From positions 19,101 through 83,100 of the forward strand of contig CAZXTE010000001.1 of the NCBI GenBank assembly GCA_964643545.1: a stretch of 64,000 nucleotides of DNA. Reading direction: 5' to 3'. Shown piece by piece: positions 30,288-54,004 of this stretch; the first letter of the stretch is position 1, and each line of letters opens with the position of its first letter. Source of the stretch: an uncultured Candidatus Saccharibacteria bacterium. Its GTDB lineage: Bacteria; Patescibacteriota; Saccharimonadia; Saccharimonadales; AWTP1-31. The position numbers and the translations under genes were made by a program. Below the pieces are notes generated by a model that saw only the letters and a list, made by a program, of their open reading frames with translations, made no database searches and was not told the DNA's origin.

Positions 30288-30470
30288 GTGTGCTCCTGTT
30301 GTCGTTTTTAGTAACGTGAAATTAACAATGTTTACCCCACAAATTCTAGCAAGTTTTCCACTGGTCGCCAACTACTTTCCACAGATTTCAAGATGGAGCA
30401 TTGCCCTGTGTACAAATATTCATCTGTTAGGCGCAATTCATTTAGAAATCACCTTTCGCAATTGTTTTCT

Positions 30471-30479
30471 TGTGGAAAA
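30471..30479 (-). promoter_or_regulatory. DnaA box (TTTTCCACA, 8/9 to TTATCCACA) upstream of dnaA
   Basis: TGTGGAAAA on the plus strand. A weaker box, CTTTCCACA, lies at 30375-30383. Confidence 0.45.
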
Positions 30480-30527
30480 CTTTTCTTCAATCCTCTAGAA
30501 TACGACTACGAAACCAAAGGAGAGGGC

Positions 30528-31904: not shown

Positions 31905-32159
31905 TACATGTGCACAAGTTGTTCATAGTATAGGCACAACTTTGTATAACTTTGGGGGTTACCCACAGCACAAAATTGGTCAGTTTTTTCACACCTCTTT
32001 GTACACTTTTTGTACTCGATTTGTACGTTGTTTATACACGCAATTTTTTGAAGTTCTAAACAGGCATTTTTATCTGTTAGTTACCGCCTTATACCCACAA
32101 TACACAGGGCTTACTATAACTACTACTACCTATTAATTAATAACAATATAAGGAACCAT
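31905..32159. other. putative oriC (dnaA-dnaN intergenic region with DnaA-box-like 9-mers and an AT-rich unwinding element)
   Basis: TTACCCACA (31959-31967, 8/9), TTGTGCACA-like, TTTTTCACA, TTATACACG and ATACCCACA (7/9 each). An AT-rich tract lies at 32110-32150 (tactataactactactacctattaattaataacaatata). Confidence 0.5.
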
Positions 32160-33251: not shown

Positions 33252-33281
33252 GGGAGGCCCTACGATGGCCTACAATACTAG

Positions 33282-37821: not shown

Positions 37822-37828
37822 GGTGTTA

Positions 37829-40800
37829 TTAGCTCCCAGTATGAGACCAATGCCATGGCTCATTCCAGTACTGCTTTAGATTATACTTTCCGGCGTTATC
37901 TATGAGCCAGTCCCACATCGGCATGCCGGGGGCAACACGAGGGTTGCTGGGGCTAGCTTTCCCACCATTTTTTGTGCCAAACTCCTCAGGGTGACCAACT
38001 CGAGTAAGCGCAAAATCTACGGCATCACCAGACTGATGTCTAGATGTTCCAGGCTTTGCGACATCGGAGTAGACGCCGTTAGGGCACTTATCATCTTTTG
38101 CGCACAGCTCTTGTTGGTGCTTCATGGTGCGAAAACTACTGGAGGCTTTGGGTGAGACGCCATCGCTCTTCATGGCGTTAAACATGTTCACCCAATCATT
38201 TGATTTGTCTGCTGCCACGAGTACGTTACCATCTGCCCCATTTACGTAATATTGACTACGCGGATTACTCTCCTCGCTTGAACTTGGGAAGCCAAGGATC
38301 GCACACAGGGTTATCTTCTTTAGAACGCCACCTTCATACCCATCGGCAAGCCCCACGTTCTTGGTGCCACTTGCACAGGTTCCGTCGCCCGTACCTCCCG
38401 TAGAGGCGGGGGGTGGTCCAAGACTCGCCACAAGAAAGTCGCTCTTTGCCAGGTATCCTGCAGCAGTATGGTGAATTTTATCTGGCGCAAACGGATACTT
38501 AGCTGGATTTTTAGCCACCTCGGCACGCCAGTCAATGGGTGTATATTTCAGGGCAGCCGCCTGGCTCGAAACTGCCGCCGCGACAGCATCGTAATTGGAA
38601 ATTTGGGTTTTTGCATTCATCCAGAATATCTTCGCCGAGGGGTTGTATTCGTGGATTTTGTCGACCATGAGTTTTATTTTGCTCGCGAACTGGGGGCTGT
38701 CTGGTCCTGGGTTTGTGCCCAGCATGACCGCTATTGTCCCGGCACGGCTAACTTCGTTTCTATCGAGGTCGATCTTTTCTAGAGATCGGTCAACGTCTAT
38801 ACCGTCGGTTGCCTGGACCTTGGTAACTTCCCACCCAGCAGTTTGCAGCTTGTTCGTTAATGAGCCTAAGTCTTTCATGCCGTTTGTCAACGAGTCGCCA
38901 ACGACGTAGACTGCATTATTGCCACCCCCACTATTTGAACCTCCGCCCCCGCTGGTGGTTTCAGATTCATAATCTTCCGGGTCGAGCACATCAGTTGTAT
39001 ATCGGCCACCAGCTGCCGCCACAGCCTTCTTATTTAGCAAGCAAGGGTTTTCCTTGGTGTGCACGTCGGTGCCCGTCTCCTTGTCCTCTATAAGCGTACC
39101 TGCAAATTCACCGCGCCCATTCGCCCAGTCTTTATCCATCTTTTCACAGACGGCGTCGGTAAGCGTGTCTGGGTCAACATCAAGTGCTGACGAATTCTTT
39201 GGAAAGCCATATTGGACGACACCAAATGGGTCAGGCTTTGCATCTGCTGCAAAGGTCTTTTTGGTGGCAAGTAAACTGCCAAAACTTTTTGACAGGCTTG
39301 TGAATGGATTTGCGAGAAGACCGGTGACGCCTGTATTGGCGGTTCTAGTCACACTGCTGGGTGTAGCCATCGCCATTTGGCTGACAAGTGATTTTGGACT
39401 CTCTGTGCTGAACATACGAGCAAAGAATGGTTGACGTTGGAATTCCTCGTTGCGCTGATTCTCTTGGTCGGCGCGAATCTCGGCTACCTGGGCGTCGGTG
39501 AGGCGTATGCCCCCCAGGCCATAGTGTGCATCATTATTCCCTGCTACATCGGCACCGCCTGCGAGCATATCGAATGTGCGGGCCCCGCTCATGTCTGCAG
39601 ACACTGGTGACGGGATTAGCCACTTCGCAATTGTTTCGAATATCTTGCCGATTTGTTCCTCAATCATCTTCTTTAGGTCAGCGTATTGAGGAAAGATCTT
39701 GCTAATTGCTGCCTCGACAGCACCTACGCCCAGATCAATGAGCTTATTGATCAAGTTAAGGATTTGTCCGATTGTGGCGTTCCATGCATCTGCCGTCTGC
39801 CCGAGCAGACTAAGTGGGGGTTGATTAAAGATGTCAGATATTTTCTGGATGACCCCATTGGTAAGCAGACTTTCCTCTGGGCAAATAAGCTTACCGGTGT
39901 CTGGCTTATTCTTATCGTCACATGTGTATTTTGGCTCTGACGCAGTGCTGCCCGTTTCTGCTGCGTATGCTTTTTGCGGCGACAGGACATCCAAAAAGGA
40001 GCTTTTTTGTATTGGTTCGCCTAGGATGTCCCCGTAGAGTGGTGCTAATTCAGCGGGTTGATTTTTGTGGTCTTTATCACCGGCGCTGTCACCCACACCA
40101 TTCGTCATGCTACCGAGCAACTCGACGTTACAATGCATGCCTTTGCACTCGTCTGCAGTTGTTCTATACAGCATGTAGGTTGCCACCATTTGCGTGCCAA
40201 TAATTTCGTATTTCCAGCGTTTCAATGCCGGCCCAGCTGACTTAGCTTTCGCGGTAATTCTGGCTGCTAGGTCAATCCAGCCAATAACAGGCAAGCCTTT
40301 CGAGGCGGCTGACCCTGCAGCCTCTCCGGCAATCTTCGCAACAACCTCTTCAACAATAAAAGCAGTTAAGCTCTTGTCTGCGAGTTTAATTGTCTTCTCA
40401 ACAATTTTTTCTACGGTCTCCTCGGTGAATTCTTTGCCAGACTTCTCAAGTGCCTCACGAATTTGTTTCTCTATTTTGTCTCTCCTCACTCCGTCATTGT
40501 CAGCTTCACCCTTCGATGCTTTGTCCGAATCACAGGCAGGATCGATGATACACTCTAATACAAAACCCAGATGTTGAGTGTAGGGTATGATGACCCGGCG
40601 ATTAATGACGAGCCTGAAGGCTCCCTTCTTTTTGTCTTTCCAGTCGTCTATGCGATCTTTTGATTTGCACGCAAAAACACACCTCCGGATGCCGTATTTT
40701 TCTTCCAGAAGTCGCCCCACCTTGAATCGGTACATAACACGCTTCCACAATGTCTCTTCTTTGAAAGACTCACGTACTTTTATGCGAACATCATTTCTGC

Positions 40801-41575
40801 CACCTGCTGCCTTCCACATACCCTGGTTTGGGTCTTTTCGCCAGCCTTCTACGTCAAGGTTACTCACTTTGTCATTGACCTTAATCTTGTAGTCGCTTGC
40901 CCCGCCACTAAAACCATCCCGGGTTATTTCTATGCCGTATTTCTCGGATAGTTTATTCTCGAGGCGTGCATCGCGCCAACCCCTAAACAAGCGGGCAGCC
41001 GGCGAATCGCCTTCTAGATTGGCAATACAATTTTTGTCTATTGTCCCAGACGAACGACTACAGGTTCCCTTGCCTAGGTTTGGGATCACCTTATCTCGGA
41101 GGTACTTGTCTAGTAGCCTTTCTGCTCTCGTTTGCACAGCACTCTCCGAGCTGGCAAAAAAGCGACTCTGCAAATTTTCCATGATGTGGTTAATCTTCAA
41201 GGGCAAAAACGCCATGAATGCGGCCAGAATCAAACCGCCAATGCCACCCCCAATAAGCCCAGCACCAATCAATTTCTTTTTTTTGCCGCCCGTGGCACCT
41301 GCTAAAAATTTCTTAAGGCTTTGAAGGTCTTTTACATCCTCAGTATTGTAGCCGCTCCCAACCCTATCGCCGAGCGCATCTGCTTCTCTTGATGCGGCTC
41401 CGCCAACACCATCCGCTGCCTCTCCCTGAGCCTCTTGCTCTGAGATATTTGGTGTTTCTGTCGAAGCGTCACCACTGGCCTCGTTTGTTAGTTTGGGGTC
41501 CTCATCTCCGCCCCCCACACTTCCTGATGCTCTTCGAGGCGAGTCATCGTCATATATTTTTGATGGTTCACCCAT
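37829..41575 (-). CDS. giant (1248 aa) T4SS-associated membrane-anchored protein with SGNH/GDSL hydrolase-like and peptidase M15 (VanY-like) C-terminal domains
   Basis: N-terminal TM after a K-rich segment (LIGAGLIGGGIGGLILAAFMAF). GDSL-like VYVVGDSLTNG block. M15 motifs SRHQSGDAVDF (S-x-H-x-x-G-x-A-x-D) and terminal EPWHW. Confidence 0.7.
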   Translation of the reverse strand: MGEPSKIYDDDSPRRASGSVGGGDEDPKLTNEASGDASTETPNISEQEAQGEAADGVGGAASREADALGDRVGSGYNTEDVKDLQSLKKFLAGATGGKKKKLIGAGLIGGGIGGLILAAFMAFLPLKINHIMENLQSRFFASSESAVQTRAERLLDKYLRDKVIPNLGKGTCSRSSGTIDKNCIANLEGDSPAARLFRGWRDARLENKLSEKYGIEITRDGFSGGASDYKIKVNDKVSNLDVEGWRKDPNQGMWKAAGGRNDVRIKVRESFKEETLWKRVMYRFKVGRLLEEKYGIRRCVFACKSKDRIDDWKDKKKGAFRLVINRRVIIPYTQHLGFVLECIIDPACDSDKASKGEADNDGVRRDKIEKQIREALEKSGKEFTEETVEKIVEKTIKLADKSLTAFIVEEVVAKIAGEAAGSAASKGLPVIGWIDLAARITAKAKSAGPALKRWKYEIIGTQMVATYMLYRTTADECKGMHCNVELLGSMTNGVGDSAGDKDHKNQPAELAPLYGDILGEPIQKSSFLDVLSPQKAYAAETGSTASEPKYTCDDKNKPDTGKLICPEESLLTNGVIQKISDIFNQPPLSLLGQTADAWNATIGQILNLINKLIDLGVGAVEAAISKIFPQYADLKKMIEEQIGKIFETIAKWLIPSPVSADMSGARTFDMLAGGADVAGNNDAHYGLGGIRLTDAQVAEIRADQENQRNEEFQRQPFFARMFSTESPKSLVSQMAMATPSSVTRTANTGVTGLLANPFTSLSKSFGSLLATKKTFAADAKPDPFGVVQYGFPKNSSALDVDPDTLTDAVCEKMDKDWANGRGEFAGTLIEDKETGTDVHTKENPCLLNKKAVAAAGGRYTTDVLDPEDYESETTSGGGGSNSGGGNNAVYVVGDSLTNGMKDLGSLTNKLQTAGWEVTKVQATDGIDVDRSLEKIDLDRNEVSRAGTIAVMLGTNPGPDSPQFASKIKLMVDKIHEYNPSAKIFWMNAKTQISNYDAVAAAVSSQAAALKYTPIDWRAEVAKNPAKYPFAPDKIHHTAAGYLAKSDFLVASLGPPPASTGGTGDGTCASGTKNVGLADGYEGGVLKKITLCAILGFPSSSEESNPRSQYYVNGADGNVLVAADKSNDWVNMFNAMKSDGVSPKASSSFRTMKHQQELCAKDDKCPNGVYSDVAKPGTSRHQSGDAVDFALTRVGHPEEFGTKNGGKASPSNPRVAPGMPMWDWLIDNAGKYNLKQYWNEPWHWSHTGS

Positions 41576-41601: not shown

Positions 41602-43515
41602 TTAAACTCCAGGCGTCAATCTATTGTTAAGGTCAATGGTGCCTTGTGGCTGATTGATTTCGCCCTGTCTCATTTGTTGAACCTGCTGCGGATTCGTTGT
41701 GATAAGCCCGGTTTCTGTAGGGCTGGCTGTAATCTGGATATGAACGTGGCTTTGCCCAGCGAAGAACAGGCCCTGGCCAACAGGAAATTGACTGAGGCGC
41801 TTCTTCTCCTCGCTGGTAAGCTTGAATATATCAGCCAATACATCAACGGCAGACGTCGACTGCTTCAGCAGTATCTGCATGCTTGCGTTGGCAACGATCG
41901 CGCGACCCATGCGTGATCCCATAAAGTCCTCCACATCCTGGCTAATGGTGGTAATGCCGAGGTTGTACTTTCGAGCACGTTTTGCAAGCGAAAACAAGAA
42001 GTTAGCAGAGTCTTCGTACTTCATAAGCTGCCAAGCTTCATCGACAATCAGAATGCGACGTTTTACGTCACTCTTCGTTTTGTTCCAGATGTAGTTCAGT
42101 ACAATGTACATAGCAACGGGGCGTAATTCGTCCTCGAGGTCACGTATGTTAAACACAACCAGGGGATTATTGACGTTAGTATTCGATTGCTGACTAAAAA
42201 TGCCCGCAAATGTACCGGTGGTATATTTTCTTAGACGCTGTGCGAGCTGTGGTCCTGTGCCGCCCATATGTAGCAGCGTGTCGTACAGATCGGCAATTGT
42301 TGGCGGAACCCCATTGTGCGTGAGTGGATCGTTGGTTATGCCGGCCTTGGCATATGTTTCGATGAGTGCTGCGTCGAGGTCGGATTCTTCTACGGGGGAT
42401 AAAGCAGGAACAGCGGCTACACCGCCACTTGCTGCCATTTGTGCTTGTGCGCCACCCATCATCAGTCGGAAGAGCCCGTGCAAAGTAATAATATTACTAC
42501 GCAAGGCGTTGTCGGCTTCTTCGGCATCTACAACCTTCGGAAGGTCAAAGGGGTTAATGCGTGTTGCTGAGCTCAAACTTAGTCGTACATATGCACCACC
42601 GACTGCATCACACATTCGCTGGTATTCGTTTTCTGGGTCAATAATAAAGATTTCGGTGCCGAACATAAGACTACGCAACGCTTCTAGCTTAACGGTAAAC
42701 GACTTACCAGCACCCGACTTGGCAAAGACAACTGAGTTGCCATTTTCTAGGCTAAACCGATCAAATATAACAAGACCAGAGTTGTGCATGTTGATGCCGT
42801 ACAATATGCCATTCTCTTGGCTCAGGTCGGCCGAAGTAAACGGGAAGCTCGTGCTAATCGCGCCCGTGTTCATATTGCGACGAATCTGAAGCTGGTCCAT
42901 AAATTGCGGTATGCAACTATTAAAGCCCTGCTCTTGCTGTGAGGTAGCTGCTTTGGAGTAGGTTAGCTGTTGGCCCAGCATAGACTCGATCTTGTGGGTT
43001 ACAAACTCCAGTTCGTCCATGTCGCCTGCGTAGACAGTAAAATATAATCCAAAACGGAAGAAACGTTCCTCGCCAACCTGTAACTTATCGCGCATTTCCT
43101 CAGCATCTGTAATGGCGGCCTGCTTGCCTGGGTCTCGCACGCGTCCCTTCTCTGCGTCAATCTGTAGACCGGCCTCTAACTGCGTTACTTTTTTGCGCAA
43201 GTTCTCCAAAACCACTTGGCTTTCCACGGGGTATATATACATAGAAAGATCCATAACCTCGTCGATGTTTACCAGGCTACTTGCCCAGCCTGTAAAAACC
43301 TGGCGGGGGTATCCGTAGACATAAAATGTTCTGGCTATCCTGGTCCCAATATGGAACAGACTATTCTCGAACACAAGTGAACTGGGGGCGATAAAGTCAC
43401 GAAGTGCAGTGATGCCCTTTTGGAACGCTGCGCTTACCTCTTGCTCTTCTCGTGCTCGTTGCGCTTGTGCGATTGCAACCGGGTCAACGGGTTGGTTCTT
43501 TCTGCCAAAAGCCAT
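41602..43515 (-). CDS. virB4: type IV secretion ATPase VirB4/TrbE family (Gram-positive PrgJ/TraE-like)
   Basis: Walker A FAKSGAGKSF, Walker B RILIVDEAWQ, and an N-terminal APSS..F...ARTFYV..YP signature typical of monoderm VirB4. Confidence 0.85.
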   Translation of the reverse strand: MAFGRKNQPVDPVAIAQAQRAREEQEVSAAFQKGITALRDFIAPSSLVFENSLFHIGTRIARTFYVYGYPRQVFTGWASSLVNIDEVMDLSMYIYPVESQVVLENLRKKVTQLEAGLQIDAEKGRVRDPGKQAAITDAEEMRDKLQVGEERFFRFGLYFTVYAGDMDELEFVTHKIESMLGQQLTYSKAATSQQEQGFNSCIPQFMDQLQIRRNMNTGAISTSFPFTSADLSQENGILYGINMHNSGLVIFDRFSLENGNSVVFAKSGAGKSFTVKLEALRSLMFGTEIFIIDPENEYQRMCDAVGGAYVRLSLSSATRINPFDLPKVVDAEEADNALRSNIITLHGLFRLMMGGAQAQMAASGGVAAVPALSPVEESDLDAALIETYAKAGITNDPLTHNGVPPTIADLYDTLLHMGGTGPQLAQRLRKYTTGTFAGIFSQQSNTNVNNPLVVFNIRDLEDELRPVAMYIVLNYIWNKTKSDVKRRILIVDEAWQLMKYEDSANFLFSLAKRARKYNLGITTISQDVEDFMGSRMGRAIVANASMQILLKQSTSAVDVLADIFKLTSEEKKRLSQFPVGQGLFFAGQSHVHIQITASPTETGLITTNPQQVQQMRQGEINQPQGTIDLNNRLTPGV

Positions 43516-44387
43516 TACAGTAGCTCCCTGTCTAAGTTTGGTTGTGGAGCCTGTCCTTGCCCTCTTGTGACAACAGGTGTTGAAAGATCACCGAAGTTAC
43601 GAAGTTGCTGCCTTGTTGCAGTATCTGGGTTGTAGGCATCGTAGTAGAGCTCGATAAGTTCCTGGGTATCGAGTGGTAACCCTTGGATGCCGCACTGCAT
43701 CAATCCAGAGAGTACAGCTTGTACGCGGTTTCTCAGCTCGTCTTTTGCCTTGGCGAGATCAGTCTCATTGATAACCACTTGCTTCTCAGGCTTCTTGCTG
43801 AACAGTGCCCCAATGCCACCAACAAGTTTCTTGCTTTCATCCAGTGTTTTCTGCAGGTCTGCTACGGGGAAATAGGGTATGACCACGTAAAAACGTTTAT
43901 CCATAATGTTGGTTTGTTGGCTCAACTGATCCATGAAATTTATGTAATCGTCCATGAGTAGCGCCAACAGCATGTTGTCGTGCTCGCTACGAATTTTGAC
44001 AAGCTTATCCAAGTAAGGTCCAAGGTCTACCTTCTCGGAACGGATCATAATTTGTATAGGGAAATAGAGAGAATTTAGAAAACCCTGGTAGCTAAACTCA
44101 ACAGCCTCTCGTTCTTGCGGGCTCATTAGGTCAAAGTTAATAGATTTTGTCATGATGACGGAACGGAAAGAGCCATCGTTCATGATCACAATACCATCTC
44201 GGATTTCCGCTATTTGCAGGGCATTTTGTGTGCTGTTTGGGTTTGATGGTGGTGCAAGAGGTTGTGGTTTGGCCCCAGCGGTACGAGGTGCATTAAAGCT
44301 AGCAGGTGGCGGTCCAGCGGGGGTTGGGTATGCCATCCCGGGCTGGTTTTGTACGGGGTTCATCTGAGGATTTGATGCCGGATTCAT
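43515..44387 (-). CDS. T4SS-associated protein with Pro/Gln/Asn-rich N-terminus, translationally coupled to virB4
   Basis: 290 aa. The N-terminal ~65 aa are low-complexity and Pro-rich. Its stop overlaps the virB4 ATG (TAATG). There is no TM segment. Confidence 0.55.
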   Translation of the reverse strand: MNPASNPQMNPVQNQPGMAYPTPAGPPPASFNAPRTAGAKPQPLAPPSNPNSTQNALQIAEIRDGIVIMNDGSFRSVIMTKSINFDLMSPQEREAVEFSYQGFLNSLYFPIQIMIRSEKVDLGPYLDKLVKIRSEHDNMLLALLMDDYINFMDQLSQQTNIMDKRFYVVIPYFPVADLQKTLDESKKLVGGIGALFSKKPEKQVVINETDLAKAKDELRNRVQAVLSGLMQCGIQGLPLDTQELIELYYDAYNPDTATRQQLRNFGDLSTPVVTRGQGQAPQPNLDRELL

Positions 44388-44427: not shown

Positions 44428-45471
44428 TTAACGCAGCGATATTATTACTTCACCATCGTCAGTCTTTGATTGACTGGGGTGGTTCTTCTCTGCCTCTCGT
44501 GCCAAACTATCAATCGGGCGATTATTCTCGATTGCTAGGTTCAGTATATCAGGCGCAGGTGCTGCTGTCACCCCTGGTGATTTTGGTTGTGCTTGCGGGG
44601 GCTGACTCGAAAGCGGCTGGAGCTTTCTGTGGTTACGAAACGACTCATCTGGGTGGCTTTTTTGCTCGTGTATCTTGTTTAGTAGCGCCTGCTCATTTGC
44701 GTCTGGTATTGCTGGCTTGGCAAAAGTCGGAGCAGGTGTTGACCCTCCCTGTGATTGCACGAACCAGCCTCCTGGGGGTGCGATATTGGTGCTCGGTGCT
44801 TGTTGCTCCCGAGCAACTTCACGCATGTGAGAGACTGCCTCTTGTTGGTGCACTTCCTTCGACTGGGCAATTTGGGCATCGAGCCGAGCGGCCGTTTGAT
44901 TATCAAAAATATCATCCTCTGCTCGAACATCTATGGTCGAGACCTGCTTTGGCAATTCCTCGACCGCTACAAGCCTGTCCGAGCTTGGCGCCATAGCTAA
45001 CGAACCGTAAGAGGGCTGTGCAAATAAGTTCACGTCCACGTTCTTAATAACCCAACCACGGCTGTCTATGGTTGTTGCCAGCGCCTTAAGGCGGCTTTTG
45101 ACTTCGTTCTGGCTAAGGTTATCAGAGAAGTTCTGTTCAATATGTTTTGGAACAGTTATCTTGACCAGTTCCTTCATGCCCGACTGGTCCCAAATGCGTT
45201 TACGTGGCTTAAAGTAAAAACGGAGCTTAGCGAGGAGCCATACCTCAGTGGGCTGATCTCGACCCCACGGGAACGCCAAAAACCCAAAGACAATCTCTAT
45301 AGGCAACAAAATAACCGCCACAAACCATACATTGTGTGTAAGGCCCAAGAAACTTATGTAAAGACTGGTTACAACAATCGCCCCAAAGATAAATTGTTTC
45401 AGCGTTAAGGGGCCAAGGAACTTATCCTCTGCCTCAATATCCTGGAGAACTTTATACGTAGCCACTAGCAT
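44428..45471 (-). CDS. VirB3/PrgI-like membrane protein with a long Pro-rich C-terminal tail
   Basis: Two N-terminal TM helices (FIFGAIVVTSLYISFLGL; WFVAVILLPIEIVFGFLAF) within the first 70 aa, as in VirB3/TrbD. The tail is Q/P-rich. Confidence 0.5.
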   Translation of the reverse strand: MLVATYKVLQDIEAEDKFLGPLTLKQFIFGAIVVTSLYISFLGLTHNVWFVAVILLPIEIVFGFLAFPWGRDQPTEVWLLAKLRFYFKPRKRIWDQSGMKELVKITVPKHIEQNFSDNLSQNEVKSRLKALATTIDSRGWVIKNVDVNLFAQPSYGSLAMAPSSDRLVAVEELPKQVSTIDVRAEDDIFDNQTAARLDAQIAQSKEVHQQEAVSHMREVAREQQAPSTNIAPPGGWFVQSQGGSTPAPTFAKPAIPDANEQALLNKIHEQKSHPDESFRNHRKLQPLSSQPPQAQPKSPGVTAAPAPDILNLAIENNRPIDSLAREAEKNHPSQSKTDDGEVIISLR

Positions 45472-45523: not shown

Positions 45524-46495
45524 CTAAAGAGCTGGAGGTCCGGCAGGTGGTGCTGGAGGTGCAGCGGGCGGAGGCGGCAGTGCAGCTATGCGGGCAGCCT
45601 CTGCCGTAGCAGCTGCCTGGGCATCCAGATTGGCAGTTGCAAGTGCGGCAGTAGTTTGTATCTCGTTTAAGACCGCCCGCTCTGCATCGTATCTACCGAC
45701 GGCTGCATCAAGCAGGTTCACTCTCGTTTCTTTGGGGGTAGAAGCGCGTTTGTATTGAGGGCTAAATTCACCCAGAATTTTAAAAGCATCAAATCCACCA
45801 CCCTCCTTGTCGGGTCGCCTAGGGCGTTCCCGGGCAATGGGCATGTTGCTCTCGAATGGACCAAGGTCAGGCGTTGGGGAATAGGAGGTATCCTCTCCTA
45901 GGAGTGCTGGCCCCCGTGATGGAACGTGGCCTTCAAAGAATTCAAGCCCTGTCCCCACAATCCTACCAAGCGCTCCTGGATCGTCAGAGACGTGTTTTCT
46001 GCGACCCGTTGGGATGACTTCACGCCTAATGCTAAACACGGCAAATATTGGAGAGCCGCCGTCTCGGGCAACTTCCACCGGTGTGCTATAGGTTGTTTCA
46101 ACGCGTCCTATCGGCTGCTCTTCTCGCGAAATTCTGCCAGGTATGCGACTTCGCCGGTCTATACCAGGCCCTCTTGTTCGCAGGGCGTTTTGTCGCATGC
46201 GATCGGGCTCGCTTCTTTGGGTACGCTCTGCATCAACACCAATTCGCTGGATTAAGTCATCAACGTCTGCGGCTACTCGCTCTTGTTCTCCGTAGAATTC
46301 AAGCACAGCTTCCGCACCCCTGTGAATGTCCTGTGTTGCCTCAACGTGCGCTTCCCTTGTAGCCTCTTCATCATCACGTCGATCGTGTCTGGCCGTCTGT
46401 AATCTACGACGGAGGTCTTCTTGGTAGGCTGCTTGTTCTGGGCTAGGGATATCGCTCATAGTGTATTTTTGTTTTAATAGTGAGTAACAAATCAA
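45524..46495 (-). CDS. hypothetical charged protein with a C-terminal poly-Pro/Ala tail (VirB10-like linker candidate)
   Basis: The track start is a TTG. An ATG is possible at 46459 (MSDIPSP). The protein is Arg/Asp/Glu-rich and ends PPPPAAPPAPPAGPPAL. GC is higher than its surroundings. Confidence 0.5.
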   Translation of the reverse strand: MICYSLLKQKYTMSDIPSPEQAAYQEDLRRRLQTARHDRRDDEEATREAHVEATQDIHRGAEAVLEFYGEQERVAADVDDLIQRIGVDAERTQRSEPDRMRQNALRTRGPGIDRRSRIPGRISREEQPIGRVETTYSTPVEVARDGGSPIFAVFSIRREVIPTGRRKHVSDDPGALGRIVGTGLEFFEGHVPSRGPALLGEDTSYSPTPDLGPFESNMPIARERPRRPDKEGGGFDAFKILGEFSPQYKRASTPKETRVNLLDAAVGRYDAERAVLNEIQTTAALATANLDAQAAATAEAARIAALPPPPAAPPAPPAGPPAL

Positions 46496-46547: not shown

Positions 46548-49500
46548 CTATTGGCGCTTGGTGGGGTCGTTGCCAACATCTATTGGGATATCCTCTCCAG
46601 GAAGTGGGGTACCGGACCGTCCCGCTGGACCACCCGGTACAGTTGAGCGTGTTGGAGTACCGGCTATGGGGTCTGCTCTGCCTGTGGTGCCTACCTCGCG
46701 GCTCCACTCGACGGGGTCAGTTGCGGCGTGCCCTGTAGCTGGGTCGATCCTAGAACTAGTTTCAAATAATGCGTAAAAGTTCTCCATTTCTTCTTTGGTG
46801 CGTCCGCTAGCACCACCACCAACTTGGGTGATCATTCTTCCAGTTGGGGTACCGCTTGCCGTCATTTCCGGTACTGTCTGGCCGATGCTGCGTGCAATTC
46901 GAGCACCACGTTGGATAACTTCATTTGCGGCTGCCTGTTCATCGGCTGTTGCAGCTGGGTTAGCGAGTGTGGTACGAGCACGAACGACTTCTTCTGACAT
47001 TGTAGTCCAGGTGTCCGGATGCTGTTGTGTCATCTGGTATGTGCCTTGGCGTTCATCGATCTCTTGCATAAGGGCTGTGGCATTCATGGTTAGTCCATTC
47101 TCGCCGTATTGGTAATGCTTCCACTCGCGGTCGGTATTCTGGTTGGCGAAGGCCGCACCCGTCCATATGCCACCCATTTGGCCTGTAGTAGCATTTTCGG
47201 CAGCACCACCACGTGTTGCTAGGCGACCAACGTTCTGGTACAGGTAATCATGTTGTTCTTGGGTGGTGGCTTTGCGCATTTCGTAACTAAGAGCGTACTG
47301 TGCAGCATCTTGGTCCCCACGCCAGCGATTGTGTGCCGCATCCACGGCACTTTCGTCGACCCATTTCCCACCAAGTGTTTTATATTGACGTGTATTATTG
47401 TGGATTCGAACATGACCATTCCCGTCCGGGTCGTAGAGGTTGCCGGCTATAGCATCGGCCTCCGCCTTGTTTACAGTCAGTGCTCGTACCTCAGTATCAT
47501 CCCCGGTAGAGGTCAGCTGCTCCATTCGTTTTTGTGTTTCGCCACGCATTGCTGTAATACCCTCCTCGAGGTTATAGCCACCAACACGCCCCTGCAAGAA
47601 TCGCGCGCTTCTGCCAAACCGACCGCCCCTGCTGGCGTAGGTGCCAAGGGCACGGTATTGACGATCTCGTGCTGTTAGCATGCGGCGCTGCACATCTTGT
47701 TTGGCCTGTTCTTTGCGACTTTTGGTGAGCCCTCCAACCTTTGCGGTGCCCCCAGCAACGGCTGCATAGAGTTTGCCCATGGCTCCCCCGGCAAACTTGA
47801 AAGCAAAAGGAATCAGGAATAATGGGATAATTTGCAGCGAGAATGCGATGAGACCCGCAAGTCCCGCGGAAACAGGGTTGGGACTTCCGGAAGTCCCTAC
47901 GGCGTCATTTGCTACGAGTATTGTTGCGCTCAATATGCTGGCAGTCGAGAATATAACAACAACAATTGGGAACACTAGTAATGTCTCGAATAATAAGTTC
48001 CACCACTTTTTAAAATATTGTTCGGTATTTGGGAGGCAGTACAAAGCAAATGCAACGGGGCTGACCATAATGAGGGCTAATATAATGCCGCGCCGAATAA
48101 CGAGCGTTGCAAAGACCGCAAGGATGGCTAACATTGCCGGAACGACAATGCCGATAAGAATAAAAACTGCCGCCTTCCCCAGGAACCCTGCCGTTAAAAA
48201 CCCACCCAGGAACCCTGCAATACCTGCAGCCCCAAGAAACAATGCGAGAACAGTAGTTAGTACTGCGCCAAGTTGCGCCCCTGGGCTGGGAGCTGCATGA
48301 AGCAAATCGGCCACTGGGGCCATCATGAGCTGGGCAATTCCCTTGCCAAGAACGTTGGTGATGTCCACGAGCAAAGCCACAATGTAGACAGATAAGTTTA
48401 TGAGTATGGCCGCTATTAATATGCGTGGCATCACTTTCTTGGCTGTATACGCATCGATAATGCCTCCACCGATAGTTTGCCCAAAAACAATGACCAGCAT
48501 GGCTATGATGAGGAATATATTGCCATAAACGCGAAATGCCGACCACGCCTTGAAGCTCGGGTCTGATGGGTCGGTAGAAACAGGGCTGGTATATAAAAGA
48601 GGGGATACAAGATTCTTAAAAAGCCAGTCAGTTGTTTCGGCAAACATATTAAAGACAGGGCAAAGTATCCAGTTTAGGCTAAAACCAGATGCTTCGCAGG
48701 TGGCGTTTGTGTCGTCCGATGTGCCGTCCGTGTTCCCACCCCCAGACGGGTTACTGCCCCCACTATTATCTCCCTGATTTCCTTTAGAATCTTCAATTTG
48801 TTTCTGGTAATCGCCATCAAGATCCTTCATGAGCTTAGATAGGTCTGGGGTAAAGCCGTCATCTTCCAAAATATGGAAACATTTTTTATTCTTGTCGCCG
48901 CCACACTGCTGAGAGTTACTGTTCGTATCTAGATTATAGACGAGACTACTCCCGACCATCTGCACTGCGTAATTATCTGCCGTGATTGCGGCACTGGACC
49001 ATGTTACGTCATCTTGGTCTACTTCAAAGTCTTGATTGATGGTGAGTGCAATTGTTATCTCTTTGCCATCCTTGTCCTTTATGACGGATGCTGCACCACT
49101 ATTGTTGTTGCCAGGCAGCTTAATGAGACGAAAGCGAAAATTACCCGACTTTTTTAGAAAGGCGAGCTTGTCTGCCTGGGCACTAGCTTGTATGTAGTCT
49201 TTATCGCCAGCTTTAATTTTAAAGTGGACGCTTACTTTTCTTTGATTAAGTGGGCTGATATCGATACGTGACGTACATGTCTTGTCTCGATACGATTTGT
49301 CGGCAAACTTTTGGTGTTCCTCCCAGACCCCTGAGCTCTTAAGCTTTGAGTAGAGCTTTTCGGCTTGATCTGCATAAAACCTCTTGGTGCTCGCGTCGCC
49401 GCCATTACGAATGTCCCACAAGTGGTCCTGATCTTTGGGGTTGCCTTTCTGGTAGGTAAATGTGCCAGGAAAGCACAGGTCCATGGTAAGCCGTGCATCT

Positions 49501-49844
49501 CCATTAACAAATGTGGCAATACGGGGCGCAGCTACTGTAGAAAACTCAGCCGAGGCAGTCTTATAGGTATAGTCACCATTATCCGGGATAGATTCTGCTT
49601 TGTTATCGGCGCGAATGTAAGGCAAGTCTCGATCCGTGCGGGTTGTAAAGACATCCTTTCCCGGAACACGATTATAATTTGAGTTCACATCGTCATCATA
49701 AGGACTGGTAGCGTATGCTATTTGTGGCGTGAAAATAATAACGCCAGCAAGAAGCTGCAGGATGATAAATGATATAAAAGCAAATGGAATAAGCTTGCGG
49801 TTAGATCTCACAACTGAAGTATAGATTAACGGAATTAAATACAC
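46548..49844 (-). CDS. VirB6/TrbL/PrgH-like polytopic T4SS channel protein with large N-terminal extracytoplasmic and C-terminal soluble domains
   Basis: 1098 aa with a signal/TM at the N-terminus and a central block of about 7 TM helices (residues ~420-650). Both termini are hydrophilic. Confidence 0.6.
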   Translation of the reverse strand: MYLIPLIYTSVVRSNRKLIPFAFISFIILQLLAGVIIFTPQIAYATSPYDDDVNSNYNRVPGKDVFTTRTDRDLPYIRADNKAESIPDNGDYTYKTASAEFSTVAAPRIATFVNGDARLTMDLCFPGTFTYQKGNPKDQDHLWDIRNGGDASTKRFYADQAEKLYSKLKSSGVWEEHQKFADKSYRDKTCTSRIDISPLNQRKVSVHFKIKAGDKDYIQASAQADKLAFLKKSGNFRFRLIKLPGNNNSGAASVIKDKDGKEITIALTINQDFEVDQDDVTWSSAAITADNYAVQMVGSSLVYNLDTNSNSQQCGGDKNKKCFHILEDDGFTPDLSKLMKDLDGDYQKQIEDSKGNQGDNSGGSNPSGGGNTDGTSDDTNATCEASGFSLNWILCPVFNMFAETTDWLFKNLVSPLLYTSPVSTDPSDPSFKAWSAFRVYGNIFLIIAMLVIVFGQTIGGGIIDAYTAKKVMPRILIAAILINLSVYIVALLVDITNVLGKGIAQLMMAPVADLLHAAPSPGAQLGAVLTTVLALFLGAAGIAGFLGGFLTAGFLGKAAVFILIGIVVPAMLAILAVFATLVIRRGIILALIMVSPVAFALYCLPNTEQYFKKWWNLLFETLLVFPIVVVIFSTASILSATILVANDAVGTSGSPNPVSAGLAGLIAFSLQIIPLFLIPFAFKFAGGAMGKLYAAVAGGTAKVGGLTKSRKEQAKQDVQRRMLTARDRQYRALGTYASRGGRFGRSARFLQGRVGGYNLEEGITAMRGETQKRMEQLTSTGDDTEVRALTVNKAEADAIAGNLYDPDGNGHVRIHNNTRQYKTLGGKWVDESAVDAAHNRWRGDQDAAQYALSYEMRKATTQEQHDYLYQNVGRLATRGGAAENATTGQMGGIWTGAAFANQNTDREWKHYQYGENGLTMNATALMQEIDERQGTYQMTQQHPDTWTTMSEEVVRARTTLANPAATADEQAAANEVIQRGARIARSIGQTVPEMTASGTPTGRMITQVGGGASGRTKEEMENFYALFETSSRIDPATGHAATDPVEWSREVGTTGRADPIAGTPTRSTVPGGPAGRSGTPLPGEDIPIDVGNDPTKRQ

Positions 49845-49931
49845 AAAACTAACTACAGTCGTTAAGGTGATTGCGCAAAATAATGACTTTTATGGTTAAA
49901 TAAAGAGTACTAACGCAACACGTAATAAAAA

Positions 49932-50450
49932 ATGAACGAAAACAATAATCAAACACCAGCAGAAACCGTAGACTACAGTTTCATAACGGATCAACCCACG
50001 GCATCTCCAAAAAAGAAACCTAATAAAATGATCGCCATATTTCTCGGGTTGACGTTGCTCGTTATTTTGGCGGCGGGCTTACTGTTGTTAGTACAGTCCA
50101 AAAAAAGCACAACCAAAAGTAACATCGACGCAGAACAGGTCGTCCGACAACTTTTTGTAGATATGGGGAACGGGGATAATATCGCCGCCCTAAACGCATT
50201 TACGGGGCCAAATAAGCCGGATGCTGCGTACCTTGAGGGCTACTTAATAGCTCCGCTGAAGAATGATTACTTGGTAGATTCATGCACATTTACCTCTTCA
50301 GAAACAAAAGTAGCTAGCTATTACCAGGTCAAGGCATCTTGCCCACAAAAGCAAGCAAGTAACATCAGAATTCGTGTAGACTTTACAGTTATGAGACAAG
50401 AGCTATCATCGAAAATTGTTGCATACTCTCTTGGCGGGGTAGATACGTGA
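49932..50450 (+). CDS. bitopic membrane protein with NTF2/SnoaL-like ectodomain (VirB8-like candidate)
   Basis: TM (IAIFLGLTLLVILAAGLLLLV), then QLFVDMGNGDNIAALNAFTG, typical of the NTF2-like fold that VirB8 adopts. Confidence 0.5.
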   Translation: MNENNNQTPAETVDYSFITDQPTASPKKKPNKMIAIFLGLTLLVILAAGLLLLVQSKKSTTKSNIDAEQVVRQLFVDMGNGDNIAALNAFTGPNKPDAAYLEGYLIAPLKNDYLVDSCTFTSSETKVASYYQVKASCPQKQASNIRIRVDFTVMRQELSSKIVAYSLGGVDT

Positions 50451-51433
50451 AATTGGTAAAGCGGGTTCACACCGCCGGATTAGTTATCCTATCTGTCGCT
50501 GGTCTACTTAGTGCAACATTATTCGTACATCCAAAATCGGTCCAAGCAGCCGCGCCAATATGCTATGAGCTACTCGGCAGCTCTGGTAATGATGTCCGAG
50601 TGGCTGACTGTAATAATCCCACAGTAGTTACTTTAAGAGACCAAAAGTACCCTGCTGACAAAAAATTTCTTGACGATCACTGTTACCTATATGGTGGATT
50701 TGGATTTTTCATAAAACGAGGTTTAACAGAAGTGCCGCCTGCGAGCGATGCAAATAAGAAATACACCTGTGAGTGGGCAAGAAAAGCGGCGGCTGCAGGT
50801 CAGGCAGCCGCTCCAAAATGTTACTTATTCTCTCGTGCGACGTTGGACGATTACTTTTCATTTAAATTTGCCGCTACAGATATCAAGGAAACTGCGTGCA
50901 CGCAAGAATTAAAGAATTACTACAGGTTTGTTCACAATCCTAAAGAAATAGAAAGCGGGTGGTGCTACCTATTCAGCCAAGATCATAACAACATCCAGAC
51001 ATCATGTGCAGACCTTCTTTCCAATATTGCAACTGCAGATAGTAGCGGAGGCGGGGGCGGCGGCACCTCCAGTTGCGCAAGCGATCCAACGCTTTCTTTC
51101 TGTGTGGACCTGCCGGTTAAGACCAATGATACGTGCGGCGAAGCTGGTAGCGGTACGGAAGTCCAGATATCGATCAATGTGGGATGTGTGGGCAAAGGTA
51201 ATGGCATTCTTGATCTGACCTTTGCGCTCATTCGATTTCTCTCTTATGGTGTGGGCATTGCCATGGTGGCCTCTTTAGTTGTTGCTGGCATACAGTACAG
51301 CTCCTCTAGAGGTGATCCACAGGCTACCAGCAAGGCAATAGGTCGTGCGCAGAGCACTGTTGGGGCGTTACTTCTGTTCTTGTTTATATATGCTATATTG
51401 AACTGGATAATACCCGCAGGACTCTTGAAATGA
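50447..51433 (+). CDS. secreted Cys-rich protein with C-terminal VirB2/TrbC-like pilin domain (tip/adhesin pilin candidate)
   Basis: Signal peptide. About 16 Cys with internal CY[EL]L/CYLFS repeats and a Gly6 linker. The C-terminus has two hydrophobic helices separated by SSSRGDPQ, as in the downstream pilins. Confidence 0.6.
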   Translation: MKLVKRVHTAGLVILSVAGLLSATLFVHPKSVQAAAPICYELLGSSGNDVRVADCNNPTVVTLRDQKYPADKKFLDDHCYLYGGFGFFIKRGLTEVPPASDANKKYTCEWARKAAAAGQAAAPKCYLFSRATLDDYFSFKFAATDIKETACTQELKNYYRFVHNPKEIESGWCYLFSQDHNNIQTSCADLLSNIATADSSGGGGGGTSSCASDPTLSFCVDLPVKTNDTCGEAGSGTEVQISINVGCVGKGNGILDLTFALIRFLSYGVGIAMVASLVVAGIQYSSSRGDPQATSKAIGRAQSTVGALLLFLFIYAILNWIIPAGLLK

Positions 51434-51819
51434 CACTCCCCCTAACCTATTTTGCAGCAGCTTGTGAAGCTGGGAAAGACACCGCCGGGCAGGTGTTAAA
51501 CTTCTTTGCATTTCCTACGTGGTACAAATATCTTGAAGGGCAGACTATCACAAGTAACGGTGCCGCAGAATGTGCCCCTAAAATCACTAAGATTGGTGAT
51601 GCCTGGTTGGTGTTGGCGGCTGTTATAGAAATAATGCTACGAGTCGGTGCACTCATTGCGATAGCATTTGTTATCTATGGGGGCATATCGTTTATTACCA
51701 GCGAAGGACAGCCAGATAAAGCATCAAAAGCCAGGAGCACAGTAATAAATGCAGTTATTGGGCTGGCACTTTCGATTTCGGCATCGGCGGTAATCTCTTT
51801 CATAGCAAGGAGCTTTTAA
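51430..51819 (+). CDS. VirB2/TrbC-like pilin paralog 2
   Basis: 129 aa with two hydrophobic helices flanking TSEGQPDK and a Cys pair near the N-terminus. It overlaps the upstream gene (ATGA). Confidence 0.6.
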   Translation: MTLPLTYFAAACEAGKDTAGQVLNFFAFPTWYKYLEGQTITSNGAAECAPKITKIGDAWLVLAAVIEIMLRVGALIAIAFVIYGGISFITSEGQPDKASKARSTVINAVIGLALSISASAVISFIARSF

Positions 51820-52140
51820 GTGACATTCAACGTATTTGCACAAACACAGCCCCCACCTACTTCACAGGTTGGTGTTTGTACTACAGATTTGTGCAACACA
51901 AATCTGCCCGCAGTGAGTGCAGGAAGCACGCAAGTGACTACGGTTTTGCAGATCTTGTTTGGAGTGGTAGCAGTGCTGGCGCTTATTTATGTCATTTTGG
52001 CAGGTTTGAAGCTCATCACTTCCAGCGGTGATCCTCAGTCAGTAGCAAAAGGACGACAACAGATACTCTTTGCAGTTATTGGCCTGACAGTTGCACTCAG
52101 CGCCGAACTAATCATTTCATTTGTAATCAACAGGCTATAA
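51820..52140 (+). CDS. VirB2/TrbC-like pilin paralog 3
   Basis: 106 aa with a CTTDLC pair and two hydrophobic helices flanking TSSGDPQS. Confidence 0.6.
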   Translation: MTFNVFAQTQPPPTSQVGVCTTDLCNTNLPAVSAGSTQVTTVLQILFGVVAVLALIYVILAGLKLITSSGDPQSVAKGRQQILFAVIGLTVALSAELIISFVINRL

Positions 52141-52142
52141 TC

Positions 52143-52550
52143 ATGAGAAAATTAACACTAGTTATGGCAACCGTACTAGGCAGCATGCTTTTTGCGCTGC
52201 CGAATACAGTATTTGCGGTAGATGTTTTTGGGGGGTCGGACGGTGCTTGTACACAAGCAAATACCACGGGCGAAGTTCCGGAAATATGTAAGGACACCGT
52301 GAACGCAACGGGCGAGAACCCTATAGTAGGGCCGAGTGGTATTGTCACCAAGGGTTTACAAGTACTCGTCATTGTAATCGGCATCATTGCGGTTGTGATG
52401 TTAGTAATCTCTGGGCTACGACTTATTATGTCGGGCGGTGATCCAAAAAATGCGGCCAGCGCACGAGATGGCATACTGTACGCCGGTATTGGTATAGTAG
52501 TAGTAGTGACTGCACAACTGCTGATCAACTTTGTATTAACAAAACTGTAA
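52143..52550 (+). CDS. VirB2/TrbC-like pilin paralog 4
   Basis: 135 aa with a signal peptide, a C..C pair, and helices flanking MSGGDPKN. Confidence 0.65.
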   Translation: MRKLTLVMATVLGSMLFALPNTVFAVDVFGGSDGACTQANTTGEVPEICKDTVNATGENPIVGPSGIVTKGLQVLVIVIGIIAVVMLVISGLRLIMSGGDPKNAASARDGILYAGIGIVVVVTAQLLINFVLTKL

Positions 52551-52558
52551 AGGAAAAA

Positions 52559-52969
52559 ATGAAAAAAATTGCCCGTTTCAGGAAAAACTTGGTAGTAGCA
52601 CTGGCGTCTGTGTTCTTCTTAGTACCGCTCTCGCCTGTTCTGGTGCATGCAGGACCATTCGACAGCGCCAAAGACGCAGCATGTAAGGGTTTAAATTTTG
52701 ACGACCCTACGGCCACGTGTGCTGCAGGCTCTAAGGACGCAGAAACAAATGCCAAGCTAAAGACGGCCGTGAATCTTTTGTCGGCTATTGTGGGTGTAAT
52801 TGCAGTAGTTATGATTATCATTGCAGGCATGAATTTTATAACTGCAGGAGGAGATTCGGGCAAAGTTTCAACTGCCAGGAATATGATTCTGTACGCTGCA
52901 ATTGGTATTGTAGTTGTAGCCCTCGCACAACTGATCGTCCGCTTTGTCTTGCAACGATTCGGGAAGTAG
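52559..52969 (+). CDS. VirB2/TrbC-like pilin paralog 5
   Basis: 136 aa with a signal peptide, a C..C pair, and helices flanking TAGGDSGK. The C-terminus is ALAQLIVRFVLQRFG. Confidence 0.65.
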   Translation: MKKIARFRKNLVVALASVFFLVPLSPVLVHAGPFDSAKDAACKGLNFDDPTATCAAGSKDAETNAKLKTAVNLLSAIVGVIAVVMIIIAGMNFITAGGDSGKVSTARNMILYAAIGIVVVALAQLIVRFVLQRFGK

Positions 52970-53031
52970 CTGTTGTAACTTCCCTCAAAGTTGTGATATA
53001 AACATAAGTAGCAATATAGAAAGGTAAAAGA

Positions 53032-53460
53032 ATGATTAAAAAATTAAAACGTTTAGTAGTTGGCTTCACCGCTTCGGCTGCACTGTTAATGCCTTTGGCT
53101 ATACCTGTGGCTGTTCACGCGCAAACGACTGAAGACATTGGAAAGAACTTTTGTCAGGGGGCAGACATAACACTCGGTACTGGTACGGGTAGCTCTGCAA
53201 CCTGTGATACCAAAGATGCAGAAAGCAAAGTGAATACTACCGTAAAGAACTCGCTCAATCTTTTTTCGGCAATAGTTGGTATTTTGTCTGTAGTCATGAT
53301 CATTATTGGTGGTGTTAAGTACATCACCTCTGGTGGTGAATCTGGCAAGGTTACCTCAGCCAAAGACAGCATTTTGTTTGCGGTCGTCGGATTGATTGTC
53401 GTGGCTCTTGCACAACTGATCGTCCGCTTCGTCTTGCAACGATTCGGTAACCCCACCTAA
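53032..53460 (+). CDS. VirB2/TrbC-like pilin paralog 6
   Basis: 142 aa with a signal peptide, a C..C pair, and helices flanking TSGGESGK. Its 3' 38 nt are near-identical to those of paralog 5 (52925-52962 versus 53410-53447, one mismatch). Confidence 0.65.
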   Translation: MIKKLKRLVVGFTASAALLMPLAIPVAVHAQTTEDIGKNFCQGADITLGTGTGSSATCDTKDAESKVNTTVKNSLNLFSAIVGILSVVMIIIGGVKYITSGGESGKVTSAKDSILFAVVGLIVVALAQLIVRFVLQRFGNPT

Positions 53461-53481
53461 GAAAGTTAGACGTATTAAAAA

Positions 53482-53506
53482 AGCTCCGGGTAACCGGAGC
53501 TTTTTA
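53482..53506. terminator. bidirectional rho-independent terminator between the pilin array and convergent hsp20
   Basis: AAAAA-AGCTCCGG-gtaa-CCGGAGCT-TTTTT: an 8-bp perfect stem with a GTAA loop, an A-run upstream and a T-run downstream. Confidence 0.7.
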
Positions 53507-53521
53507 TTTGGTCGAGGTATT

Positions 53522-54004
53522 CTAAAGAACCTGGATCTTCTTGACGGTGTCTTGCTTGAGCTTAGTAAAGCTAATGGTTAGAACGCCATCTTTCAAGACT
53601 GCTTCGATCTCTTCTTCTTTAACGGGAACAGGTAATGTGATGCTGCGAGAGAATTCTCCCCAGTAGCATTCTTGAACAAAATAGTTCTCTACGTCATCTT
53701 CGTTGCCGGCAGATAGCGTGCCACGAATGCTAAGCGTGTTGTCGGCAATGCTCACATCGAGTTCTTGCTTGTTGACTCCCGCGGTACGTGCCTTTACGAC
53801 TAGTTTTTCCTTGGTCTCGTATACATCAACTGCTAATTGGCCAGGAACTGCTTCTTCCTCGTCCCATTCTTCTGCGGCCACAACTGCTGTGTTTGCGGCG
53901 ACAGGCGCAGTAGTCGCTGTTTCTGGAGCATCGTCTTCACCCAAAAAGGCAGCCGTCAGCTCATCTTCCATCAATAAATCTTCATCACGATTACGTCGTG
54001 CCAT
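53522..54004 (-). CDS. Hsp20/alpha-crystallin family small heat-shock protein
   Basis: Alpha-crystallin domain (VDVYETKEKLVVKARTAGVNKQELDVSIADNTLSIRG). Confidence 0.8.
   Translation of the reverse strand: MARRNRDEDLLMEDELTAAFLGEDDAPETATTAPVAANTAVVAAEEWDEEEAVPGQLAVDVYETKEKLVVKARTAGVNKQELDVSIADNTLSIRGTLSAGNEDDVENYFVQECYWGEFSRSITLPVPVKEEEIEAVLKDGVLTISFTKLKQDTVKKIQVL

Follow-up and report, generated by a model that had tools for sequence, protein, structure and literature searches.

A chromosomal type IV secretion system (T4SS) locus in a 64,000-nucleotide stretch of DNA from an uncultured, ultrasmall and parasitic Candidatus Saccharibacteria bacterium (assembly GCA_964643545.1, contig CAZXTE010000001.1; hereafter the window) includes six genes for VirB2-like pilins, the first of which encodes a pilin with a cysteine-rich N-terminal domain, here called the head. 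On sequence grounds this gene is the position-1 paralogue of a conserved six-gene VirB2-like (PF18895) array, and position 1 is the variable slot of that array, occupied by pilins with or without a head and with heads that are mostly unrelated between species. The explanation favoured here, tentatively and with a confidence just short of even, is that of a position-1 pilin which would carry an outward-facing, lineage-specific binding head, act as a low-copy cap or initiator, and be assisted in assembly by the product of the gene directly upstream, g0. The six-gene pilin array of the Saccharibacteria T4SS is known (Wang 2023; Quinonero-Coronel 2025), and the array, its chromosomal origin-proximal site and the missing recognised adhesin have already been published (PMC12102498; PMC12857230), a survey of 3,035 Patescibacteria genomes having found no T4SS adhesin (PMC12102498). 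A headed VirB2-type pilin is not mentioned in the surveys of these arrays (PMC12102498; PMC12857230), which agrees with an earlier note on this DNA that had called such a fusion unusual. Both the hypervariable slot at position 1, with its heads, and the g0 partner appear to be undescribed in the literature searched.

The open reading frame (ORF) has exactly the strand, boundaries and 328 aa product that the earlier note had given (Table 1). An identical protein (P0001) is present in public data, as is a 90% identical relative (from locus L008) annotated as a hypothetical protein. By hydropathy the N-terminus is a Sec-type signal peptide, and an A/V-x-A site two to four residues ahead of the first cysteine is kept in all eight head-bearing homologues, from which cleavage of the leader after VQA34 is inferred. 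The protein contains 12 cysteines (residues 39, 55, 79, 108, 125, 151, 173, 187, 210, 219, 230 and 247), eight of them in the folded head and four in the following neck. This is fewer than the approximately 16 of the earlier note, although the enrichment remains strong, with cysteine making up 5.5% of the ectodomain vs 0.87% of 21 other ORFs of the window (binomial P = 6.5e-7). At four sites the cysteine is followed by tyrosine (C39-YEL, C79-YLY, C125-YLF and C173-YLF), and the chance of at least four of 12 cysteines preceding tyrosine is about 9e-4. The Gly6 linker described in the earlier note is found at residues 201-206 and is Gly8 in the 90% identical relative. The N-terminal part is cysteine-rich as described, but the head of about 240 aa proposed there resolves into a folded domain of 166 aa (35-200), the Gly6 linker and a neck of 46 aa (207-252). 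The neck, with four cysteines, is predicted to hold two disulfides. Residues C230, G231, G246, C247 and G249 are nearly invariant among 18 orthologues including headless ones of 131-164 aa, so that the part of the neck around C230 and C247 (approximately residues 229-252, TCGxG...GCxGxGN) is also present in headless proteins.

The C-terminal segment consists of two helices (residues 253-286 and 291-321/326, helical in both AlphaFold2 (AF2) runs) that are connected by the loop SSSRGDPQATSK and followed by a C-terminal IPAGLLK. Hydrophobic segments cover residues 7-30, 254-283 and 300-328 and the loop SSRGDPQATSKAIGR has a net positive charge, so the protein shows the VirB2/TrbC-type layout of a leader, two hydrophobic helices and a short positive loop. 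On its own the protein matches PF18895 (T4SS_pilin) only weakly, over residues 268-321 with an E-value of 0.006 and 17 bits, against a gathering cutoff of 26.6. Its head-bearing relatives match the same family in eight of eight cases at E<=0.1 (best E 5e-11), and PF18895 hits are on record for several orthologues as precomputed annotations; the five downstream pilins are all above the gathering threshold. The C-terminus is 22-30% identical to the neighbouring pilins by BLASTP, with additional support from an HMM search, and in hhalign a profile of the 18 orthologues aligns with the five neighbouring pilins at a probability of 96.9% and E 1.3e-10 over 71 columns (residues 249-322), a match that spans both helices and the G-D-P loop. 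The hairpin is therefore, as far as sequence comparison goes, homologous to PF18895 (VirB2-like) pilins over both helices and the loop. The match to the two-helix pilin module noted earlier holds, and the possibility raised there that the C-terminal helices might be simple membrane anchors unlike the neighbouring pilins is rejected, because the hairpin is homologous to all five of them. A type IV pilin of the type IV pilus (T4P) or type II secretion system (T2SS) kind was likewise considered and rejected, as the leader is an ordinary Sec leader (VQA|AAP) and no class III signal peptide, with no G-F-T-L-x-E/prepilin-peptidase site and the polymerisation module is C-terminal. The best Foldseek overlay of the hairpin is with the archaeal conjugative pilin 8dfu, with a template modelling (TM) score of 0.64 on the target and a non-significant E-value of 5. 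An R-G-D tripeptide (residues 288-290, positions 51308-51316) is located in the inter-helix loop and kept in close orthologues. It is probably not an integrin-type motif, because all six pilins have a G-D-P loop motif of which it is a part, and its expected exposure is to the cytoplasm or the lumen. One relative of 231 aa (P0019) comprises two complete pilin hairpins in a single polypeptide, a tandem pilin fusion.

The earlier note had proposed that the head and the C-terminus be modelled separately; AF2 predicts a folded head (residues 34-200) in addition to the hairpin helices. In the model obtained with an alignment of eight head-family sequences, the predicted local distance difference test (pLDDT) score is 70-90 over residues 34-200, and the head is composed of four units (35-75, 76-121, 122-169 and 170-200), each a β-hairpin that starts at the C-Y motif and is followed by a helix. 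A mixed alignment of the 18 orthologues gave a head with a pLDDT of 45, which is unusable because the heads in that alignment are non-homologous. The second cysteine of each unit sits at the end of the modelled hairpin or the start of the helix, which suggests four stapling disulfides with the inferred pairs 39/55, 79/108, 125/151 and 173/187. Of the eight head cysteines, all except C151 are invariant among the eight head-bearing homologues (25-42% identity), and C151 is retained in seven of them. The internal CY[EL]L...C repeats of the earlier note are upheld as far as the four C-Y motifs are concerned. Similarity between the units is weak, with a profile-profile probability in hhalign of at most 26%, and a sequence-level internal repeat was dropped. 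The repeat is thus one of cysteine pattern and predicted secondary structure, without demonstrable sequence homology.

Homologues of the head on other carriers, which the earlier note had suggested looking for, were sought in an exhaustive search with residues 35-229 against 1.84 billion cluster representatives. Six clusters matched, all of 298-329 aa and all with the same layout of signal peptide, head and pilin, hence this head type is found only on the position-1 pilin. No match for the head was found in Pfam, the PDB by sequence, the PDB by Foldseek or BFVD; the PDB sequence searches gave 0 hits for both the head profile and the family profile, and no PDB entry matched in Foldseek at an E-value below 0.8. 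The head is therefore a candidate for a new disulfide-stapled fold, unmatched in the libraries searched.

The variability of position 1 was assessed by a scan of one genome per GTDB species, which gave 148 relatives, nearly all of them Saccharibacteria/Saccharimonadales, and 80 of the loci (numbered with an L below) were fetched. Complete position-1 orthologues range continuously from 129 to 337 aa (n=75, species-level). In the 56 fetched loci with exactly six pilins, the standard deviation of the length is 53 aa at position 1 vs 6.5-19 aa at positions 2-6. The number of head cysteines grows with length from 2 to 12. A head of at least 40 aa is present in 42 of the 78 position-1 proteins scored, and these heads fall into 32 BLAST-distinct clusters with no similarity detectable between clusters. 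Even where the cores share 70-90% identity, which is the case for 33 pairs, the heads are detectably similar in no more than three. At the same time, no other pilin module is as well conserved as the position-1 hairpin in most loci; its identity to that of the window is typically 50-77%, vs approximately 30-57% for pilins 2-6 (g2-g6).

Selection on the gene was estimated from a single close pair, the window and its 90% identical relative L008. The whole gene has a dN/dS of 0.066. For the head the dN is 0.075 and the dS about 1.5, which is saturated, giving a dN/dS of about 0.05, whereas the linker and core are nearly frozen with a dN of 0.003, and amino-acid change in the head is thus about 25 times faster than in the core. 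The head is under purifying selection and clearly constrained. This bears on the possibility that an otherwise ordinary pilin has been extended at its N-terminus by a functionless, fast-decaying segment, or that the head is an artefact of annotation, as might be supposed from heads that are mostly unrelated between species and from the many headless orthologues. Such an origin is very improbable, as it is contradicted by the low dN/dS, by the confident AF2 fold and by the conservation of the cysteines at such low identity, and the architecture is moreover kept in lineages whose VirB6 proteins are only 29-33% identical. In the same comparison the dS is uneven along the neighbourhood (46548-54004), with 0.24-0.34 for g2, g4, g5 and hsp20, 0.65-0.77 for VirB6, g0, g3 and g6, and about 1.5 in the head vs 0.40 in the core of the same gene, a pattern that looks like a recombination mosaic.

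The earlier note had placed the headed pilin first in its array. Among the pilin genes it does come first, but within the operon it is preceded by g0, whose stop codon overlaps the pilin start, and the two genes are translationally coupled. The g0 protein carries a conserved PDYSFI motif at its N-terminus and a single transmembrane helix; two cysteines are invariant in its outer domain, which is about 110 aa long. Homologues of g0 are located directly upstream in every locus with the head type of the window (L008, L058, L088, L089/L090, L091 and L092, with two copies in L091) and also precede more distant C-Y-containing heads in L031, L011 and, twice, L072, so that in 10 loci besides the window g0 is inherited together with a headed pilin at position 1. 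In the remaining loci a search upstream of the pilin gave no g0 homologue on the plus strand, and only three weak minus-strand matches occur (L025, L029 and L062; E 3e-4 to 9e-3), and g0 is absent from L001, whose head is of a short, degenerate C-Y type. The protein belongs to no Pfam or NCBIfam family, and a metagenome scan with DYSFIT[NDE]Q found no relative.

Loci that share the head type and g0 with the window have VirB6 proteins only 29-33% identical to its own, whereas loci with 47-52% identical VirB6 carry other heads and no g0. The cassette is therefore old and patchy in its distribution. This suggests that the cassette of head and g0 has been replaced repeatedly. Recent transfer is not needed for this pattern, because head, core and VirB6 are similarly diverged. 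In L072 (7722-11091) two tandem cassettes of g0-like genes (197 and 193 aa) and headed-pilin genes (337 and 373 aa), with different heads, stand ahead of the usual array; the cassette can duplicate and diversify.

It is proposed that the pilin is exported by the Sec pathway, cleaved at VQA34 and held in the membrane by its hairpin, the head being on the outer side and the basic loop (R, K, R) on the inner. The pilins would then be extracted and polymerised on the VirB6 platform so that the N-terminus and the head point away from the filament axis. In the solved pili of the VirB2 family (F, T and the archaeal Ced/Ted) the lumen is lined by the loop, whereas both termini are turned to the outside; the head would therefore lie outside any filament. 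The conserved hairpin would dock the subunit to the conserved machinery, while the head would be a lineage-specific module that binds a structure on the surface of the host bacterium. The pilin itself would be a low-copy specialised subunit, either cap or initiator, doing the job of VirB5 or of GspK/CofB, and the g0 protein may be its membrane-bound assembly or holding partner. Surface display of the head, as the earlier note had anticipated, is well supported by the signal peptide and the positive inter-helix loop, according to which the head should be extracytoplasmic. A specialised, probably low-copy display subunit is favoured because a conserved docking module is combined with a replaceable ectodomain, a partner gene and non-redundant paralogues. 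The tip position and the adhesin function are plausible hypotheses, the position as cap or initiator being modelled on VirB5 on VirB6 and on GspK/CofB in type IV filaments.

Several observations weigh against this reading. A head of at least 40 aa is lacking in 36 of the 78 position-1 proteins, and the position-1 pilin of Southlakia epibionticum is an essential, headless protein of 132 aa (PMC10633639). The core job of the slot therefore needs no head, and binding via a head cannot be its core function. A pilus of these systems is mentioned in published reviews as a possibility only (PMC12857230), and both the pilus and the place of each paralogue are hypothetical. The head resembles no known adhesin, lectin or receptor-binding fold (Foldseek PDB, PDB sequence and BFVD), its AF2 model was built on eight sequences alone, and there is no sign of positive selection on it in the only close pair, where dS is saturated. 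Lastly, a major, fully decorated subunit such as flagellin likewise joins a variable outer domain to a core that is conserved.

The last point leads to the alternative of a stoichiometric (major or co-major) subunit whose head would decorate the whole filament in the manner of flagellin outer domains and provide shielding, stability or evasion of phages and predators, with no specific host recognition. This would account for a helical core that is conserved and an outer domain whose length varies widely, down to complete absence, and by a rough, uncomputed estimate the Gly6 linker and the 46-aa neck could set a domain of about 19 kDa at a roomier radius. It is nevertheless judged unlikely, as positions 5 and 6 rather than position 1 are nearest to canonical TrbC/VirB2 (PF04956), the position-1 motifs GIQYSSSRGDPQ and ILNWxIPAG are distinct and highly conserved, which suggests a specialised contact, and a dedicated partner gene is more typical of a special subunit. 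Flagellin shares with the position-1 pilins a conserved filament-building helical core and an outer domain that may be missing or anything up to large, and that shows no relationship from one lineage to the next. It belongs to another family with another export route, however, and its variable part lies between the helices of a single major subunit, whereas here it is N-terminal and confined to one of six paralogues.

A further alternative is that the pilin is no filament subunit at all and that its hairpin is a membrane anchor or part of the T4SS channel, with the head and g0 acting in the cell's own envelope, for example by spanning or organising the wall around the apparatus. The co-inheritance of the head with g0, a bitopic membrane protein, and the large wall hydrolases encoded at the locus are in keeping with such a role, as is the lack of any observed pilus in these systems, on which reviews have only speculated. 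It is given a low probability here, since the hairpin is homologous to VirB2-type pilins in both helices and the loop, its predicted fold overlays the archaeal pilin 8dfu (albeit at the non-significant E-value given above), and a partner outside the cell would explain the extreme turnover of the head from species to species better than a conserved partner in the cell's own envelope.

The favoured role of a specialised display subunit has counterparts in known systems. The resemblance to VirB5/TraC (pKM101) is confined to the proposed role, namely that of a low-copy protein that is first on the VirB6 platform, located at the pilus tip and in contact with the target. The VirB5-like role of the earlier note accordingly stands as an analogy only: the protein matches no Pfam family but PF18895 at E<=1 and no NCBIfam family, and no VirB5 homologue was detected in the locus. 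Membership of VirB5/TrbJ was rejected on the missing profile match and on the AF2 head of four β-hairpin and helix units, as VirB5 is an elongated three-helix bundle with a small globular appendage and does not have the VirB2 fold. With GspK of the T2SS and CofB/TcpB of the type IVb pili, the protein shares the fusion of a polymerisation module to a bulky, disulfide- or ion-stabilised domain and an operon with several non-redundant pilin paralogues. These proteins belong to an unrelated filament superfamily, and their extra domain is C-terminal to α1 whereas here it is N-terminal to the hairpin.

The closest counterpart is found in Southlakia epibionticum, whose pilins SEML1_0014 to SEML1_0019 (PF18895) share the two-helix hairpin at the C-terminus, including its G-D-P loop. 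Gene order at the locus is likewise the same, with VirB4, TraC-like, PrgI, VirB6, six divergent pilins and Hsp20 (SEML1_0013 to SEML1_0020 from VirB6 to Hsp20), and the gene of the window corresponds by position to SEML1_0014. Unlike the headless, 132 aa SEML1_0014, the pilin of the window has a folded 166-aa domain with four predicted disulfides and the Gly6 linker inserted between signal peptide and neck, and it is preceded by g0. The six Southlakia pilins were each scored as essential (PMC10633639), which implies non-redundant roles for the paralogues.

Saccharibacteria, like Patescibacteria more generally, are found attached to the bacteria that host them, and in the single species tested this way of life requires the T4SS and its array of six pilins. 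Within the array, a fixed position pairs the best conserved assembly module with an ectodomain that changes from species to species, in some cases along with a dedicated partner gene, and therefore offers a concrete, swappable candidate for the recognition element. The headed pilin would also be the first VirB2-family pilin known with a large folded domain. Domain swaps are feasible since genetics exists for Saccharibacteria. A bolder version would have position 1 as an exchangeable host-specificity cassette, in which a VirB2-fold subunit (here with g0) caps the filament in place of the missing VirB5 and displays a lineage-specific binding domain, stapled by disulfides and of a previously unseen fold, which sets the host bacterium that the epibiont can attach to and feed on; taken as a whole this is improbable.

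The T4SS locus is dnaA-proximal (Table 1), in agreement with the published pattern for Patescibacteria. The pilin gene is accompanied by homologues of VirB4, VirB3 and VirB6. The VirB6-like protein has a weak CD3337/EF1877 match and syntenic orthologues with PF19590 (TrbL_3), and its Southlakia orthologue SEML1_0013 is annotated TrbL/VirB6. Next to VirB4, one wall hydrolase of 1248 aa contains GDSL lipase/acylhydrolase and VanY domains and another of 820 aa contains GH3 and a weak NlpC/P60 match; both are candidates for a VirB1-like function or for attack on the host wall. The array order of six divergent VirB2-like genes next to VirB6 and ending at Hsp20 recurs in every related contig examined (the six-gene order was seen in L003, L005, L006, L007, L091 and L092).

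Table 1. Features of the head-bearing pilin gene and its surroundings, in coordinates of the window
Feature	Position	Strand	Remarks
Head-bearing position-1 pilin gene	50447..51433	+	328 aa, GTG start, stop included (ORF listing, translation)
Sec-type signal peptide, residues 1-34 (MKLVKR..., hydrophobic 7-30, VQA|AAP), predicted	50447..50548	+	hydropathy
Head domain, residues 35-200, eight Cys, predicted	50549..51046	+	AF2 with 8-sequence head alignment; Cys conservation
Gly6 linker, residues 201-206	51047..51064	+	sequence; pLDDT ~30
Neck, residues 207-252, C210, C219, C230, C247; motif TCGxG...I.xGCxGxGNxILD	51065..51202	+	
VirB2-like pilin hairpin, residues 253-328	51203..51430	+	PF18895, hhalign, AF2
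g0, 172-aa bitopic membrane protein	49932..50450	+	stop overlaps pilin start (GTGA)
Pilins 2-6	51430-51819, 51820-52140, 52143-52550, 52559-52969, 53032-53460	+	PF18895
hsp20	53522-54004	-	convergent, closes pilin array
VirB6/TrbL-like polytopic membrane protein, 1098 aa	46548..49844	-	divergent from pilin operon
323-aa protein	45524-46495	-	
PrgI/VirB3-like protein	44428-45471	-	Pfam PrgI 3.4e-11
290-aa protein, TraC-like by synteny	43515-44387	-	PF26593 TraC-like genes in L003, L005-L007
VirB4 ATPase	41602-43515	-	Pfam P-loop_TraG 1.5e-26
Two very large multi-domain wall hydrolases	35401-41575	-	adjoin VirB4
dnaA, dnaN, recF	30393-34355	+	within 20 kb of T4SS locus

Pilins 5 and 6 are the closest to canonical TrbC/VirB2 and have PF04956 hits. 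Pilins 2 and 3 (51430-52140) are without an N-terminal signal peptide, unlike pilins 1, 4, 5 and 6, and position-2 pilins contain an FPTWYKYL-type motif ahead of the hairpin that is conserved in all loci inspected. A promoter scan gave counts at chance level, and inspection of the ribosome-binding sites was undecisive on expression levels. Between pilin 6 and hsp20 lies a perfect hairpin, AAAAAAGCTCCGG-GTAA-CCGGAGCTTTTT (53477-53509), with runs of A and T on its flanks. It is absent from the list of the consensus scan and looks like a bidirectional terminator. The array always ends at the Hsp20 gene, whose conservation far exceeds that of any other gene nearby, with 70-98% identity across species in which VirB6 has 30-50%. 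Its Southlakia counterpart SEML1_0020 was scored as essential (PMC10633639), and a functional link between Hsp20 and the pilins is possible.

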